IMG/VR virus record: IMGVR_UViG_3300020172_002676
Span: 1-64,000 of that record
Length of the DNA stretch: 64,000 nt
Origin: a virus
Strand: one strand, 5' to 3'
The notes beneath the pieces were generated by a model. The model was not told the DNA's origin. It saw only the letters and a program-made list of their open reading frames with translations, and did no database searches. Both the position numbers and the translations under genes were made by a program. Below are positions 58,897 through 63,998 of the stretch, one piece after another; positions within the stretch are counted from its first letter, which is position 1, and each line of letters opens with the position of its first letter.

Positions 58897-59497
58897 TAAA
58901 TGTAAAATTGAAAAAGATGTTTGCGAGTTTAATAAAAAATTAATTAGTAATAAAGGAATTCAATATTATAAAAGTTGGTGTAAGAATTGTCAATCTGAGG
59001 AAGATAAATCTAAAAGATTATTGAACCCTGAAAAATATAAAATATGGTATGATAAAACTCGTAAAGAACGCAACGAGCACAGGTCAGAATATTATCAACA
59101 TAATAAAGAAAAAATTTTAATACAAAATAAAAAGTATAAGGGAGTTAATAGTGTTAATCGTAAAAAAAAATATGATAAAGATATTTTATTCAAATTAAGA
59201 CATAGATTAAGTTGTAGACTTAGAGAAGTATTAAAATTTAAAACATTAATAAAAAACAAAACTCATAATGAAGTTATGGGTTGTTCTTCGGAATTCCTTA
59301 AAGAATATTTAGAAAAACAATTCACAGAAAAAATGTCTTGGGAAAATCATGGATTTTATGGTTGGCATATAGACCATATCGTTCCATTATCATCGGCGAA
59401 AACAGAAGAAGAAGTTTATAAACTTTGTCATTATACAAATCTTCAACCACTATGGGCTGAAGATAATTTGAAAAAGGGAGATAAGATTTTATTTTAA
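58877..59497 (+). CDS. HNH endonuclease with N-terminal Cys zinc-binding domain (free-standing homing endonuclease-like)
   Basis: CSKC...CKNC; WHIDHIVPL...HYTNLQPLWAEDNLKK. Confidence 0.88.
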   Translation: MEKKICSKCKIEKDVCEFNKKLISNKGIQYYKSWCKNCQSEEDKSKRLLNPEKYKIWYDKTRKERNEHRSEYYQHNKEKILIQNKKYKGVNSVNRKKKYDKDILFKLRHRLSCRLREVLKFKTLIKNKTHNEVMGCSSEFLKEYLEKQFTEKMSWENHGFYGWHIDHIVPLSSAKTEEEVYKLCHYTNLQPLWAEDNLKKGDKILF

Positions 59498-61164
59498 CTT
59501 TCTTTTCTTAAACTACCTTCATAGAATTCAAATCTATCGTGTTCTGTTGGAGTTAATAACAAAATACCTGGATTAATATTTCCTTTAACTGTTTCCTGAT
59601 AACAATGAGACATAAGAGTTTGTTCAAATGGATGAGCCCATTTTGTTTCTAAGTAACATTTATAATTACCCGATTTACTTAACACAATTGGCCAGTTGGA
59701 CAGATATATTTCACCATCGGCATAAGGTAATCCCTGATGTATTTTAATGTTTTTAAATTTAGTTCTTGGAGCATTTGGGTCTAAACCTTGAACAGGTAAT
59801 GATGATTTTTCGGGAAATAATTTTATTCTAACATCTTGAGGAACATTATACCACGAAAATTGTATATCATTTGAACCATAAAATTCGGTAAAACTTAATT
59901 TTAAAAAATCAAAATTTTCATTTTTAATTATTTGTAATGTTTTTGTATATAAGTTTGGAACAAATCTATTAAAACCATTTCTACATACTTCACCTTTTTT
60001 AAGATAAAAAGCCATGTCATCTTCAAACCAATAATAAAAATCTAATCCTGTTTCATCAAAATGTTCTGCAACAAATACTCTACCCCCAACGATTCCTATA
60101 TTATCTTTCTTAATATGTTCAAATCCGTGTTCTTCACAAAGTTCTTTATATCTTGGAGTTGTTGATAGGTCAGTTGAATTATCTAGTAAAAACTTTTTTG
60201 GTTTAAGAATAAAATCTTTATCATATTCCAACATTGACTTTATTAATGTTTCAAATTGGTTTGGACTATTAAAAGTAATAACATAAAGACCAACCTTATT
60301 AATATCTAAATTATTAACAACAGATATTTTACCTTCAGATTTAACTTTTAATTCATCATTCTTTAAGTCCTCAAAAAATTTACCTATTAATCCATTTGAT
60401 TCTATTTCAAAATAATTTATTAAATCAGAATGTTTATAAGACATAATTGAGAAAATACTTTCTTCAGTTCCCATATATCCTTCATCTAATGTTGATGATA
60501 ATAATCCATAATAAATTGAGTTGATGTCGGTTATTGTATGTTTTGGACCACCAAAAAATCCACCTCTAGCAACTTTAGTTACTTTATCTCCAGCAATTGA
60601 ATTTAACTTATTATACTCAAACCCGTGAATTTCGGTTTCGGCTCCGTAAGGAAAACAAATAAATGAAAATTTTGAAATGTATTTAGGTAGTTTTTCTAAA
60701 ACTTTATCGTGTGTAAAATATCCTGGATGAACAGTGTTTGTTAATCCCGCATCAATCCAAAACATCATCTCAGAATTAAACGTATCCATAATCTTAGCAT
60801 CATTTAGTAAGAATACTTTTGACATTACTAAAGGATTATACATATCTAACCTTGCTTGTGTTGATTCTGATAACCATCCAGCTCGGTTGTACCATTCAGG
60901 ATTATTTCTTATTTCTTGTATTTTATCGTATGGAACCGTTTGTTTAAACCATTCCTGTTGTCTAACAATAAATTGTGTATTTGATTTATCCCTCCTTTCA
61001 AAGACAAAAGATTCTAATTCGGAATCACCAAAAATAATCATTGGGTTATCAACCTTTAAAAGTTGTTCAAATTTATCTAAATAATGTTGGAATGAACGAG
61101 ACCATCCATCATTAAGTTCGTCTCTTTTAATATTCCAAAGGCCAGTTACTAATGTTATTCCCAT
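59494..61164 (-). CDS. Two-domain glycosyltransferase: HtrL/YibB-like N-terminus plus GT-A (GT2-like) C-terminus
   Basis: ITLVTGLWNI, FWIDAG, GGFFGG, MGTEESIF; second domain VGLYVITFNSP...LLDNS...WFEDD. Confidence 0.75.
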   Translation of the reverse strand: MGITLVTGLWNIKRDELNDGWSRSFQHYLDKFEQLLKVDNPMIIFGDSELESFVFERRDKSNTQFIVRQQEWFKQTVPYDKIQEIRNNPEWYNRAGWLSESTQARLDMYNPLVMSKVFLLNDAKIMDTFNSEMMFWIDAGLTNTVHPGYFTHDKVLEKLPKYISKFSFICFPYGAETEIHGFEYNKLNSIAGDKVTKVARGGFFGGPKHTITDINSIYYGLLSSTLDEGYMGTEESIFSIMSYKHSDLINYFEIESNGLIGKFFEDLKNDELKVKSEGKISVVNNLDINKVGLYVITFNSPNQFETLIKSMLEYDKDFILKPKKFLLDNSTDLSTTPRYKELCEEHGFEHIKKDNIGIVGGRVFVAEHFDETGLDFYYWFEDDMAFYLKKGEVCRNGFNRFVPNLYTKTLQIIKNENFDFLKLSFTEFYGSNDIQFSWYNVPQDVRIKLFPEKSSLPVQGLDPNAPRTKFKNIKIHQGLPYADGEIYLSNWPIVLSKSGNYKCYLETKWAHPFEQTLMSHCYQETVKGNINPGILLLTPTEHDRFEFYEGSLRKES

Positions 61165-61170
61165 AAATTA

Positions 61171-62513: not shown

Positions 62514-63496
62514 TAAGATTCAATAATTTTTTCTAAAAAGTTAAGTGTATAATCAAACTCGTAATAATCGGGTAATTTGTTATCAACAAAGATTGGAGAT
62601 TCAATATAACGTTTGTATAAAATTTCATTATTATCAATCTCTTTAACTAAAGATAAAAAATCATTTAAATCTGTAAAGTCATGTAAATTAATAAAACTTT
62701 CAGGATTAAACCCTTCTTCTAAAATATATTTGTTACCAAAAAATATTGGTATTGTGCCACTGAAAAATGCGTGATATAGTTTTTCTTGTAAAATATAATC
62801 AGTGTTAGTATAATGGATGGACATGTTAAATTTATATTTTTGAAATAACCCTATTTTTTCCCTGTAGGTTAATCCATCAATACGTCCAGTATAAACCGAA
62901 TTTTGCCATTGATATTTATTTAATGTGTCATTACCATGTAATGTTTGTCTCCAAGGACCAGAAGAACTCACTTCTTTATATTCAGATAGTTTATCAAAAA
63001 TTTGACCCCTAAAATCATTATTTGATGCTTGAGTAACGGAACAAAACCCTAAATTCCTTTTGGATATTACATTAAAATTTCTTTCTTGCGTTAACCAACT
63101 TAATGGGCTATCAACTAATCTCGCTTCATCATATAATGTCCAAACATCAAAAACACCTGAGGGTTGTCTTAAATATCTTTCATGTTCAAGTTTATTATAC
63201 CCTAACGCCCATTGATTATCGTTTGAATTTATTGGTGAACTAAAATCGGCAACCTCACCTGAAACATAGATAAATTTTTTATTTCTATCTGATTGATTAT
63301 GTTTTGTGGGTAATTGACCTGTATAAGTGTCTATTTGATTTTCATTGTAATTTAAGTCTGAATGTATTACAATGTCGGGATTTATTGGGTCAATAATAAC
63401 ATTATATTTTTTAGATAAGATAAACTTGAAATAGTTCATCCAACTATGTTGTCCAATGTTTGGAAATCCTTGTCTGGTTATTCTAACGGTTTTCAT
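62513..63496 (-). CDS. GT10 alpha-1,3/4-fucosyltransferase-like protein
   Basis: FCS..ASN..R, YKFNMSI...DYILQEKLYHAFFSGTIPIFFG, FNPESFIN: the GT10 motif. Confidence 0.85.
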   Translation of the reverse strand: MKTVRITRQGFPNIGQHSWMNYFKFILSKKYNVIIDPINPDIVIHSDLNYNENQIDTYTGQLPTKHNQSDRNKKFIYVSGEVADFSSPINSNDNQWALGYNKLEHERYLRQPSGVFDVWTLYDEARLVDSPLSWLTQERNFNVISKRNLGFCSVTQASNNDFRGQIFDKLSEYKEVSSSGPWRQTLHGNDTLNKYQWQNSVYTGRIDGLTYREKIGLFQKYKFNMSIHYTNTDYILQEKLYHAFFSGTIPIFFGNKYILEEGFNPESFINLHDFTDLNDFLSLVKEIDNNEILYKRYIESPIFVDNKLPDYYEFDYTLNFLEKIIES

Positions 63497-63998
63497 TCAA
63501 AATTTGTGTTAATTTAATTGTATTTTCATTATGTGGGCCATTATCGTGTATAATATACGCACCCAATTCTAAAAGTGAAATTTTAGAACCATCTATTTTA
63601 ACATTATCTTTTGTATCTAAAGTGCTAAAAAAGAAATCACGTTCTTGGTCAATTATGATATCATCATTCAATAGATATTGTATTGACCATCTACCTTGGT
63701 CGTCAATTCCAGTTTGATATTCTTTTTCAATAATATCTTTTAAGTGATAAACTATTTTATCTGTATATCCAAAATAAGTACCCGAATTCAAATATTTACT
63801 ATCATTAATCATTCTTTTTTTCTCATATAAATGAGTGTAATTTGTTGGTGGCCATAAACCTTTTTCAGCCCCCATAACAATACTACAATTTAATGATTTG
63901 AAATTTTCTATAATACCTTCGGGTGATTTTATAAAATTGGTATCAGTTGCATCTAAAAATAAAATATAATCATATTTTCCAACAATATTTGATTCAAT
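63483..63998 (-). CDS. PLOD/LH3-type (procollagen) glycosyltransferase domain protein; 5' end lies beyond the right edge
   Basis: Frame stays open past 63875 to the edge: YDYILFLDATDT...IVMGAEKGLWPP...YLNSGTYFG...DDQ. Confidence 0.78.
   Translation of the reverse strand: MESNIVGKYDYILFLDATDTNFIKSPEGIIENFKSLNCSIVMGAEKGLWPPTNYTHLYEKKRMINDSKYLNSGTYFGYTDKIVYHLKDIIEKEYQTGIDDQGRWSIQYLLNDDIIIDQERDFFFSTLDTKDNVKIDGSKISLLELGAYIIHDNGPHNENTIKLTQILNENR

Follow-up and report, generated by a model that had tools for sequence, protein, structure and literature searches.

A hypervariable glycan locus in a freshwater jumbo phage may serve the O-glycosylation of its own Thr-Pro linker proteins

We analysed a window of 64,000 nucleotides from the contig of an uncultured freshwater jumbo phage. 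The contig coordinates follow the window numbering, also for features located beyond it (Table 1). About a quarter of the genes in this contig are devoted to sugar chemistry. A previous sequence-only reading described five co-oriented, abutting glycan genes, and this layout is confirmed. The ORFs at 59494-61164, 61171-61797, 61800-62513, 62513-63496 and 63483-63998 (and onwards) are all on the minus strand and abut or overlap. The cluster extends past the window, up to 67275. The window edge splits the PLOD-type gene and retains its C-terminal 171 codons (63483..64000). Past this gene, four more genes follow on the same strand, with GT60 at the end. Genes for Thr-Pro proteins flank the cluster on one side and DNA polymerase B on the other. 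This cluster and a second glycan locus are both surrounded by genes of replication and nucleotide metabolism (PolB, exonuclease, dUTPase), outside the structural module.

Table 1. Features of the glycan loci and their surroundings (occurrence is given among 80 related loci).
Feature	Position	Strand	Support and occurrence
Collagen-like tail fibre, possible further acceptor	1..1554	-	Pfam Collagen 1.5e-33; PHROG tail fiber 2e-29
354-aa protein with 89-aa Thr-Pro linker, tail-fibre region, further candidate acceptor	1586..2650	-	
Family B DNA polymerase, downstream neighbour of the cluster	55427..58204	-	Pfam DNA_pol_B and exonuclease domain; PHROG 262 8e-51
Conserved 125-aa protein	58292..58669	-	75/80 loci
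Homing-endonuclease insertion	58877..59497	+	PHROG endonuclease VII 3.2e-15
556-aa fusion, HtrL_YibB domain (residues 3-251) and GT2-like second GT-A domain	59494..61164	-	Pfam PF09612 6.7e-17
208-aa SAM methyltransferase, rhamnosyl O-methyltransferase/CmcI type	61171..61797	-	Pfam PF04989 (RMNT_CmcI) 1.2e-7; 7/80 loci
237-aa putative GT-A glycosyltransferase with D-A-D motif	61800..62513	-	2/80 loci
327-aa GT10-family (fucosyltransferase-type) GT	62513..63496	-	Pfam PF00852 (Glyco_transf_10) 1.3e-11
PLOD-type GT-A, 234 aa	63483-64187	-	PF25342 2.9e-14 on full ORF; 3/80 loci
MetW-like methyltransferase (weak)	64189-64827	-	
FkbM methyltransferase	64805-65434	-	
185-aa protein, no family given	65437-65994	-	
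GT60, conserved, proposed initiating enzyme, 422 aa	66007-67275	-	PF11397 6.1e-65
Terminator-like hairpin between GT60 and the Thr-Pro genes	67304-67335	-	
Thr-Pro-linker protein, 404 aa, proposed acceptor	67359-68573	-	
Thr-Pro-linker protein, 185 aa, proposed acceptor	68618-69175	-	
Thr-Pro-linker protein, 662 aa, proposed acceptor	69178-71166	-	
Second glycan locus: GT2_5+GT4, sugar dehydrogenase, GT2, GT11, two FkbM methyltransferases, FabH-like, acyltransferase, PhyH, DegT fragment, GMD, Glyco_trans_1_2, GT2	76809-93467	+	

The cluster had been placed upstream of a BppU-like structural gene, and this does not hold. The ORF in question encodes the conserved 125-aa protein, which has no match in Pfam, PHROG or NCBIfam. 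The next gene is the family B DNA polymerase, and no recognised structural gene adjoins the glycan cluster. The "HNH cassette" said to interrupt the cluster is a real insertion on the opposite strand and matches endonuclease VII of PHROG. Loci without an insert have 20 bp between the HtrL gene and the 125-aa gene; therefore, the endonuclease cassette is an insertion. A homologue of the homing endonuclease is present anywhere in the locus in only 9 of the 80 related loci, and about eight loci carry inserts of ~0.75-1 kb at the same site.

Two glycosyltransferases form the conserved core. The GT60 gene is the most conserved of the locus (85-95% identity across the 80 loci). To our knowledge, no bacterial or phage GT60 has been characterised so far. 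Residues D93-S94-H95 and H230 are invariant in 21 homologues with 38-95% identity. GT27 and GT60, two families that share the O-glycosylation of Ser/Thr in polypeptides, are recognised by a DxH motif replacing DxD (PMC7185993; PMC8724618). The GT60 enzymes glycosylate Ser/Thr-rich mucin domains, and the protist acceptors are Thr/Pro-rich (PMC8724618). Its sequence gives strong reason to regard the phage protein as a homologue of polypeptide GlcNAc-transferases, the family that starts mucin-type sugar chains.

The second core enzyme is the HtrL-GT2 fusion, found in 77 of the 80 loci. Its HtrL domain, as originally proposed, scores above the Pfam gathering cut-off. The C-terminal half has no HMM match. 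Here, the GT2-like assignment comes from the FEDDM motif (380-384), invariant in 29 homologues, from the fold and from language-model neighbours carrying PF00535. The AF2 model (pLDDT 70) has the two-domain GT-A enzymes LARGE1, LH3, K4CP and PmHS2 as its top PDB matches. The Mimivirus GT R699 is also among the top fold matches.

The genes between GT60 and HtrL-GT2 constitute a hypervariable island, with 33 families in 16 layouts among 77 related phage loci. The PLOD-type GT, GT10 and SAM methyltransferase named in the sequence-only reading are supported above the gathering cut-off (GT_PLOD 1e-14 on the part inside the window). The "DxD" GT is less firmly placed. It has a D-A-D motif and language-model neighbours with PF03407 (Nucleotid_trans) or GT8, but no match in Pfam, NCBIfam or PDB. 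Each of these four genes occurs in just 2-7 of the 80 loci. The GT10 family present here is found in 2 related loci, and a second GT10 family (F03) in 8. A swappable island of glycosyltransferases and methyltransferases between two conserved GTs is the pattern that diversifying selection on a surface structure would be expected to produce.

Across the glycan gene sets, four methyltransferases exceed the Pfam cut-off and two more are weaker candidates. Because GT10, GT11, GDP-mannose dehydratase and methyltransferases are present, a fucosylated, O-methylated glycan is plausible in this particular strain, judging from its gene content.

Long Thr-Pro linkers occur in just 4 of 99 ORFs, and three of these are immediate upstream neighbours of GT60, sharing its strand. 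This arrangement is kept in 75 of 80 close relatives. In these proteins, Thr-Pro linkers accompany an N-terminal anchor domain, which is conserved, and tips of LamG, DUF285, LRR or fibrinogen-like type, which are swappable. The 662-aa family has a ConA-like jelly-roll fold, akin to virion structural proteins of cyanophages. By architecture and fold, the candidate acceptors look like exposed virion proteins. Neither they nor the GTs and methyltransferases of the phage contain TM-like segments, and inspection of the Thr-Pro proteins by eye revealed no signal peptide. In a complete 321-kb relative, no ORF has more than four TM-like segments; therefore, it has no protein of the Wzx, Wzy or WecA type. 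Two observations weaken the link with GT60. A strong terminator separates GT60 from the Thr-Pro genes, so they are not one operon. Also, the lineage is rich in Thr-Pro proteins, which account for 9 of the 404 ORFs of a complete relative. Thus, their presence within 10 kb is weak evidence, and only direct adjacency and distance decay carry weight.

Both kinds of evidence are found elsewhere. Thr-Pro proteins are also encoded immediately next to GT60 (L120, L122) or to the HtrL gene (L107, L119) in phages from other lineages. In 80 loci of bacteria or MAGs that span many phyla, 17 strict Thr-Pro ORFs lie within 3 kb of GT60 (417 kb covered), compared with one at 5-10 kb (524 kb). The pattern coding for TPTPTPTP appears 5 times in XacN1, 3 in RAS14 and 8 in Xoo-sp13, all GT60 carriers. 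Three phages lacking GT60 have no such pattern; two of these three infect host genera shared with carriers. XacN1 encodes homologues of both core enzymes, ORF334 (GT60, 46% identical) and ORF330 (HtrL-GT2, 41% identical over the full length). This pair adjoins baseplate genes, with ORF323/324 listed as baseplate wedge (PMC5852040), and the gene of a 3313-aa protein that contains a Thr-Pro tract. However, in XacN1-type phages the Thr-Pro protein lies several genes from GT60, which counts against the pairing. The XacN1 virions show at least two protein bands positive for periodic-acid-Schiff (PAS), known as bands only, which the authors credit to the phage GTs (PMC5852040).

Sugar genes, including a member of the family that starts mucin chains, stand beside Thr-Pro proteins; therefore, the phage probably sugar-coats its own fibre-like proteins. 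We lean towards reading the locus as a phage-encoded cytoplasmic system for mucin-type O-glycosylation of Thr-Pro linker proteins. This reading builds on what the sequences show: which families the enzymes belong to, the DxH motif, the order of the genes, how conserved or variable they are, the statistics of adjacency and the lack of membrane proteins. We infer the acceptor, the donors, the order of the steps, the virion location and the biological role. The soluble GT60 would place the first HexNAc, probably alpha-GlcNAc from UDP-GlcNAc, on Thr/Ser of the linkers. These would join the modules of fibre- or adhesin-type proteins encoded directly upstream of GT60 and elsewhere in the genome. The two-domain HtrL-GT2 enzyme would then lengthen the core. 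Enzymes of the swappable island may complete the chain in a strain-specific way, here with the PLOD-type GT-A, the GT10 fucosyltransferase-type GT, the 237-aa putative GT-A and up to four methyltransferases. Finally, the second island may provide unusual sugar nucleotides and transferases (GDP-mannose dehydratase, sugar dehydrogenase, acyltransferase, GT11).

The sequence-only reading had also proposed that the phage glycosylates its own proteins and neither DNA nor host LPS. This remains the best-supported reading, although most of its evidence lies outside the interval 59494-63998: GT60 beside three Thr-Pro proteins, the same pairing elsewhere and the PAS-positive XacN1 proteins. The proposed link of the PLOD-type GT to collagen, by analogy with LH3, is not supported. 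That analogy requires hydroxylysine. Neither Lys nor Pro occurs in the 77 Gly-(Thr/Ser)-(Ser/Asp) triplets of the collagen-like fibre, and a hydroxylase domain is missing from the 234-aa protein. Moreover, a complete relative that has neither the PLOD-GT nor GT10 still keeps a syntenic Gly-Thr/Ser-Ser fibre together with the Thr-Pro proteins. The suggested co-occurrence of fibres and GT cluster is thus contradicted for these two genes, but not for the conserved core of GT60 and HtrL-GT2.

Soluble GTs at the inner membrane face could instead act on lipid-linked precursors of LPS/LOS, capsule or host glycoproteins, with export by host flippases and ligases. The altered surface of the infected cell might block superinfection or free the progeny from debris. 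HtrL_YibB, GT25, GT10, GT11 and GT9 (the last in XacN1) are best known from LPS/LOS and O-antigen synthesis. The soluble LPS/LOS enzymes of the HtrL/YibB, GT25, GT9 and GT10 families use lipid-linked acceptors; therefore, missing TM segments are compatible with a host-envelope target. Sugar-nucleotide genes with variable GT cassettes also look like O-antigen loci, and both loci are in the genome's non-structural arm. Nevertheless, we consider this unlikely. The most conserved gene, GT60, has no known lipid acceptor and specifically adjoins Thr-Pro proteins in phages and bacteria. Judging by the complete 321-kb relative, the phage encodes no polytopic membrane proteins such as Wzx, Wzy, WaaL or GtrB, and in XacN1 the PAS-positive proteins are in the virions themselves. 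It is improbable that the Thr-Pro adjacency is incidental and that the glycan goes to the Gly-Thr/Ser-Ser collagen-like fibre, or to capsid, sheath or decoration proteins at short Ser/Thr motifs. The X and Y positions of this fibre are nearly all Ser/Thr, and the collagen-like GXT repeats of Bacillus BclA are O-glycosylated. On the other hand, the distance decay in unrelated bacteria favours Thr-Pro tracts specifically, and the protist GT60 acceptors are Thr/Pro-rich mucin domains. Such acceptors are compatible with glycosylation of the Thr-Pro linkers, and both kinds may serve.

Two further alternatives change the chemistry. A phage 2OG oxygenase might hydroxylate linker prolines, to which GT60 would add GlcNAc, as Gnt1 does on Skp1. 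The phage GT60 is soluble and similar in length (422 aa) to the cytoplasmic Gnt1. Complete relatives encode three proteins of the PF13640 prolyl-hydroxylase type, and the second island has a PhyH dioxygenase. This variant is nonetheless highly improbable: XacN1 and Xoo-sp13 have the GT pair and Thr-Pro tracts with no PF13640 match, phages often carry such proteins for other reasons, and none is near the locus. Glycans on hydroxylated pyrimidines could also protect the DNA from restriction, as in T-even phages, RB69 and 5mYOX/GT clusters. DNA polymerase B abuts the locus, and phage DNA glycans are diverse, with strain-variable GT sets (Pyle et al.; PMC13326640). However, the known pathways require a ThyA-type hydroxymethylase/hydroxylase, or a C5-MT with a TET-type dioxygenase, usually clustered with the GTs (Pyle et al.; PMC13326640). 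The single ThyA homologue of a complete relative is ~90 kb away; it carries PCH and PFNIASY motifs and reaches 303 bits with the thymidylate synthase equivalog. A search without positive control gave no Tet_JBP match. GT60, GT10, GT11, sugar O-methyltransferases and GMD have no known precedent on DNA, and we give this explanation only a very slight chance.

The proposed mucin-type glycosylation of the linkers has a close parallel in the protist GT60/PF11397 polypeptide alpha-GlcNAc-transferases (T. cruzi, Dictyostelium), the sister family of the animal GT27 ppGalNAc-transferases (PMC7185993; PMC8724618). The phage enzyme shares the family match (6.1e-65), DxH with the conserved downstream His, the lack of a ricin-type lectin domain and Thr/Pro-rich mucin-like candidate acceptors, here encoded next door. 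In contrast, it is predicted to be soluble in the bacterial cytoplasm instead of Golgi-anchored, and it is paired with an HtrL-GT2 fusion absent from protist systems. The Xanthomonas jumbo phage XacN1 and its relatives Xoo-sp13, RAS14 and CM1 have the core pair with sugar-modifying genes between, and Thr-Pro tracts in the genome. XacN1 belongs to another phage lineage with another host, and a carbamoyltransferase replaces the GT10, PLOD and methyltransferase genes in its spacer. Its ORF330 was not recognised as a GT (PMC5852040).

In mycobacteriophages, phage-encoded soluble GTs modify their own virion proteins in the cytoplasm, as we predict here; their glycans are on C-terminal extensions of capsid and tail-tube subunits (Freeman et al. 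2023, as cited in PMC12619734). Compared with that account, the candidate acceptors here are Thr-Pro linkers of modular fibre-type proteins with a GT60 initiator, and the gene set is far larger and hypervariable. The "Moraphages" resemble this phage by description: freshwater jumbo phages of 200-307 kb with predicted Bacteroidota-type hosts. Four of their core orthologous groups are annotated as glycosyltransferases, and virion glycosylation is one possibility named, although that paper gives no GT families, acceptors or variable island (PMC12619734). Bacterial O-antigen and capsule loci likewise have conserved flanks and swappable GT, methyltransferase and sugar-nucleotide cassettes that generate many types. 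However, the phage loci have no initiating phosphoglycosyl transferase, flippase, polymerase or ligase, and all the proteins they encode are soluble. Giant viruses (chlorovirus PBCV-1 Vp54, Mimivirus fibrils) use their own GTs, sugar methyltransferases and nucleotide-sugar enzymes (GMD) in the cytoplasm, with no ER or Golgi. The phage shares these enzyme classes. Unlike it, they are eukaryotic viruses with other linkages (N-linked on PBCV-1 Vp54), and we know of no GT60/Thr-Pro pairing described for them. If the Thr-Pro linkers are indeed glycosylated, a glycan sleeve would shield and stiffen these exposed linkers, and it would differ from strain to strain.

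The window covers the initial 64 kb of one 103,804-bp virus contig (CheckV completeness ~35%), and its end cuts a glycan cluster. Five minus-strand ORFs, from 59494 to the window end, abut or overlap, as the sequence-only reading claimed. The cluster is real, and its true extent is far larger than these five genes. Past 64000, on the same strand, the PLOD-type gene is completed; next come a weak MetW-like methyltransferase, an FkbM methyltransferase, a 185-aa protein, and a GT60 glycosyltransferase. Directly past GT60 are three genes whose products (404, 185, and 662 aa) present long Thr-Pro tracts, for example one of 12 residues. 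A strong terminator-like hairpin lies between the GT60 gene and these Thr-Pro genes. Long Thr-Pro linkers occur in only 4 of the 99 contig ORFs, and the fourth ORF adjoins the collagen-like fibre. No TM-like segments were found in the enzymes or in the Thr-Pro proteins.

The 422-aa GT60 protein matches PF11397, "Glycosyltransferase (GlcNAc)", CAZy GT60 (6.1e-65, 220 bits, cut-off 21). The D93-S94-H95 motif, a DxH replacing the DxD of GT-A enzymes, is invariant in 21 GT60 homologues. Likewise, H230 is invariant in these homologues and is a candidate C-terminal metal-binding histidine, assigned by position only. DxH instead of DxD is a hallmark common to GT60 and its sister family GT27 (PMC7185993; PMC8724618). 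In protists, GT60 initiates mucin-type O-glycosylation of Ser/Thr-rich domains (PMC8724618). The phage enzyme may use UDP-GlcNAc to place GlcNAc on Ser/Thr (or Hyp) residues of a polypeptide; what is shown is its genomic association with Thr-Pro proteins. Our literature search found no paper tying GT60 to phages functionally.

GT60 has 397 relatives in IMG/VR. Related loci were counted in the best 80 of these 397, which are 85-95% identical. [quoted passage not shown] Across these loci the variable stretch draws on 33 protein families, arranged in 16 layouts. Among them are GT25, two GT10 families, GT2, GT4-like, RXYLT1-like, and PLOD-type glycosyltransferases, together with FkbM and class I methyltransferases. 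The layout seen most often, in 55 of 77 loci, consists of a GT25-type gene and a 350-aa gene with no family assignment. The layout of this phage appears in two other loci, with small differences. Its CmcI, 237-aa, GT10, and PLOD-type genes are each present in only 2-7 of the 80 loci, so four of the five genes first noticed are strain-specific accessories. The conserved core is GT60 plus the HtrL-GT2 fusion.

Pfam agrees with the earlier domain names for HtrL_YibB, the CmcI-type methyltransferase, GT10, and the PLOD-type enzyme. On the other hand, neither the 237-aa "DxD GT" nor the GT2-like second half of the 556-aa fusion has an HMM match. The HtrL_YibB domain covers residues 3-251 of the fusion. 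This protein scores 62 bits against PF09612 (cut-off 24) and 71 bits against the NCBIfam YibB equivalog models (cut-off 265). By these scores it appears to be a member of the HtrL/YibB family, not a YibB equivalent. A FEDDM motif is invariant among 29 homologues. The AF2 model (pLDDT 70, weak beyond residue 390) has its best structural matches in two-domain GT-A enzymes, including LARGE1, LH3, Mimivirus R699, the chondroitin polymerase K4CP, and heparosan synthase. Language-model neighbours of the second half carry PF00535. The motif, the model, and these neighbours support a GT2-like domain in this half.

By Pfam, the gene at 61171-61797 encodes a rhamnosyl-O-methyltransferase/CmcI-type methyltransferase. 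The 237-aa protein presents a D-A-D motif and Nucleotid_trans/GT8-like language-model neighbours, with no PDB support. We compared its family with the PLOD-type and HtrL alignments by hhalign, using shallow alignments. Nothing useful came from searching PDB sequences with GT60, a GT60 profile, the HtrL fusion, or the 237-aa protein. The GT10 protein contains the C-terminal catalytic domain PF00852 (1.3e-11, 44.9 bits, cut-off 23.9). The 234-aa PLOD-type protein matches GT_PLOD PF25342 at 2.9e-14 and consists of the GT domain only, with no linked lysyl hydroxylase domain. PLOD/LH3 glycosyltransferases modify hydroxylysine in collagen. The proposed link from PLOD to collagen fails because the collagen-like repeats of the phage have no lysine, and a complete relative keeps the syntenic Gly-Thr/Ser-Ser fibre with neither PLOD-GT nor GT10.

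Residues 1-615 of the 662-aa protein belong to a widespread family; it counts over 2,264 proteins, which form 665 clusters at 50% identity. Behind this domain, relatives carry Thr-Pro linkers that lead to variable tips: LamG, DUF285, LRR, DUF4832/4874, or fibrinogen-like. ConA-like jelly-rolls are present in the AF2 model (pLDDT 84, pTM 0.86), which matches, among others, lectin-type binding domains and "virion structural proteins" of cyanophage S-PM2. A conserved anchor, flexible linkers, and swappable binding tips are the usual build of fibres and adhesins, from which we infer a location in the virion. A scan of the distant homologue P0166 gave only a weak giant-virus match.

Further observations concern the same proteins. 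The 662-aa family (P0001-P0269) is very abundant in metagenomes, and it also shows a papain-like tip match and short IPSNDLYY repeats. The 404-aa and 185-aa Thr-Pro proteins contain small Cys-bracketed modules of ~70-80 aa. In relatives such as the homologue P0020 these modules stand behind the 615-aa domain in one fused protein; in this phage they are separate genes. A fusion of the 662-aa and 185-aa ORFs was rejected after comparison with an 852-aa relative.

The association between GT60 and Thr-Pro proteins extends to other lineages. In more distant phage loci, with GT60 37-69% identical to that of this phage, the HtrL-GT2 partner is kept in 17 of 21. Among distant phage lineages, a Thr-Pro protein abuts GT60 in two loci (L120, L122) and the HtrL gene in two others (L107, L119). 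We also considered 80 bacterial or MAG loci with GT60 from many phyla, half of which hold the HtrL-GT2 partner too. Strict Thr-Pro ORFs number 17 at less than 3 kb from GT60 (417 kb covered) versus 1 at 5-10 kb (524 kb covered), a steep fall with distance. The binomial p is ~1e-5 if the ORFs are independent; the loci are partly related, and the true value is weaker. In a small sample of cultured phages, TPTPTPTP-coding stretches number 5 in XacN1, 3 in RAS14, and 8 in Xoo-sp13, all GT60 carriers. The count is 0 in the three phages of the sample that lack GT60, two of which infect the same host genera.

XacN1 has homologues of both core enzymes, ORF334 (46%, GT60) and ORF330 (41% over the full length, HtrL-GT2). 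Next to them are genes for the baseplate wedge and for a 3313-aa protein that contains a Thr-Pro tract. XacN1 virions present at least two PAS-positive bands, ascribed by the authors to phage glycosyltransferases (PMC5852040). These bands are the sole, indirect support for virion-protein glycans that depend on phage glycosyltransferases. Virion glycosylation in mycobacteriophages is established, as cited in PMC12619734. The same work describes four core GT groups in freshwater "moraphages" and leaves their role open.

A second glycan locus is present on the contig (table); in all, about 23 of its 99 ORFs relate to glycans. Its central 10 kb have no counterpart in a complete relative and its flanks have one, so it is a second variable island. 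The DegT/DnrJ gene, beside GMD, the hexapeptide acyltransferase, and the FabH-like enzyme, is probably truncated or decaying. Could this set be a perosamine-like acylated amino-sugar pathway? The putative donor of the GT10 enzyme is GDP-fucose. GMD is encoded on the contig; a GDP-fucose synthase was not found. In the relatives tested GMD did not co-vary with GT10, the GT10-bearing contigs being fragments that lack the second locus. A true GMD is encoded by one relative that lacks GT10.

Coordinates of features on the contig and in the relative G001 (IMGVR_UViG_3300031951_000003)
Feature	Position	Strand	Remarks
Fourth ORF with long Thr-Pro linker	1586-2650
SprB-repeat protein	3051-5216	-	721 aa; five SprB repeats, weak Hoc-like head-decoration match
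125-aa gene	58292-58669
Sigma-70 consensus	58965-58993	-	within endonuclease cassette
HtrL-GT2 fusion	59494-61164	-	556 aa
CmcI-type methyltransferase	61171-61797	-
237-aa protein	61800-62513	-
185-aa protein without assignment	65437-65994	-
GT60	66007-67275	-	422 aa
404-aa and 185-aa Thr-Pro proteins	67359-69175	-
662-aa Thr-Pro protein	69178-71166	-
Second glycan locus	76.8-93.5 kb
Second locus: GT2_5+GT4 fusion
Second locus: UDP-glucose/GDP-mannose dehydrogenase
Second locus: GT2 and GT11			GT11: alpha-1,2-fucosyltransferase family
Second locus: FkbM methyltransferases			n = 2
Second locus: FabH-like enzyme, hexapeptide acyltransferase, PhyH dioxygenase
Second locus: DegT/DnrJ aminotransferase, truncated	85816-86415	+	199 aa vs 360-position profile
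Second locus: GDP-mannose 4,6-dehydratase (GMD)			382 bits
Second locus: Glyco_trans_1_2 protein and further GT2 genes
G001: P4H-type 2OG oxygenases (PF13640)	28772-29065, 152970-153233, 162023-162214
G001: three tandem collagen-like genes	267768-275156

Cytoplasmic mucin-type O-glycosylation of the phage's own Thr-Pro-linker proteins is the best explanation, and we hold it with moderate confidence. GT60, the putative initiator, would start the chain on the Thr-Pro linkers. The HtrL-GT2 fusion would extend it, and the two hypervariable islands would diversify the glycan. The first reading, that the phage glycosylates its own particle, was right in kind, although its specific reasoning was wrong. 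The main rival is a remodelling of the host envelope by soluble LPS-core-type enzymes that act via host carriers. Several GT families found here are LPS-typical, and we still consider this rival unlikely. A lipid-linked export (Wzx/Wzy or ABC) needs polytopic membrane proteins (initiating transferase, flippase, polymerase, ligase) and finds no candidate: a simple hydropathy scan of the 99 contig ORFs and of 404 from a complete relative found no ORF with more than 4 TM-like segments.

A very unlikely alternative is that the glycosyltransferases serve a hypermodification of phage DNA. DNA glycosylation requires a ThyA-type hydroxylase/hydroxymethylase, or a pair of C5-MT and 5mYOX (TET), usually clustered with the GT (PMC13326640; Pyle et al.). 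The complete relative lacks this arrangement: its single ThyA homologue, ~90 kb away from the locus, resembles a thymidylate synthase by score (303 bits against the equivalog) and by its PCH and PFNIASY motifs. The Tet_JBP search gave no match, with its controls silent too. As for the linkage, hydroxyproline is possible in the lineage of this phage, where complete relatives encode three P4H-type 2OG oxygenases. Nevertheless, PF13640 is absent from XacN1 and Xoo-sp13, which excludes the XacN1-type phages.

The flanks of the cluster differ from the first description. The 125-aa ORF, read as a BppU-like structural gene, is conserved, and it has no match in Pfam (E <= 0.01), PHROG, or NCBIfam, neither to the BppU N-terminal domain nor to another family; the next gene is PolB. 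The endonuclease gene, the HNH cassette of the first description, lies on the opposite strand. It is an insertion, with a homologue anywhere in only 9 of the 80 related loci. The HtrL and 125-aa genes are 20 bp apart in loci that lack the insert. Two intergenic sites, HtrL/125-aa and 125-aa/PolB, repeatedly hold inserts of ~0.75-1 kb (loci L008, L013, L020/21, L044-46, L082; also L031-33, L039, L041-43, L063/64/66). This suggests hot spots of homing endonucleases beside the polymerase gene. The cassette contains a perfect sigma-70 consensus (TTGACA, 17 nt, TATAAT; 12/12) that faces the 125-aa gene and PolB; promoters of Bacteroidota, the probable host, differ. A promoter for the downstream genes may have come with the insertion.

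Close IMG/VR relatives reach 321 kb and have terminal repeats, so the contig represents part of a freshwater jumbo myovirus. Among its genes are those for a tail sheath, a collagen-like tail fibre, and a SprB-repeat protein. Its PolB shows only distant kinship to polymerases of cultured phages. A DNA-level search of the cultured-phage collection found no close relative, and a tRNA gene search of the phage sequence found none. The SprB repeats and the GT60 homologues on Saprospiraceae MAG contigs (68-71% identical) point to a host in the Bacteroidota. Loci L130-L137 (Saprospiraceae, Bacteroidia MAG contigs) hold GT60 homologues of 68-73% identity on Saprospiraceae-binned contigs. Some of these contigs are short, so they may be phage DNA that was binned with its host, and others may be cellular homologues; they serve as a host clue. 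The SprB-repeat protein is 28% Ser+Thr, with a hydrophobic C-terminus. The tandem genes in G001 encode long Gly-Ala-Gln/Gly-Ser-Gln collagen-like proteins of up to 174 triplets, a type different from the Gly-Thr-Ser fibre at the window start.

More tentatively, jumbo phages and many bacteria may share an undescribed cytoplasmic mucin-type O-glycosylation. A GT60 initiator and a two-domain HtrL-GT2 extender or polymerase would coat Thr-Pro linkers. Swappable phage islands of transferases, methyltransferases, and sugar-nucleotide genes would then give a strain-specific "glycotype" of the virion surface, a phage counterpart of bacterial O-antigen serotypes. Such a system would be akin to the self-glycosylation of phages and giant viruses. 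Cultured carriers of this enzyme pair exist (XacN1, Xoo-sp13, RAS14), so the idea is open to direct test. Only a few phages have documented glycosylation of their own particles, with scant knowledge of the enzymes behind it. If the proposal is true, the mucin O-glycosylation of protists and animals (GT60/GT27) also runs in the bacterial cytoplasm and in phages. The long Thr-Pro linkers often seen in phage fibre proteins and in surface proteins of bacteria would then serve as sites of glycosylation. Hypervariable "glycotype" islands would be part of the genomes of large environmental phages, with possible effects on host range, stability, adhesion, and recognition.
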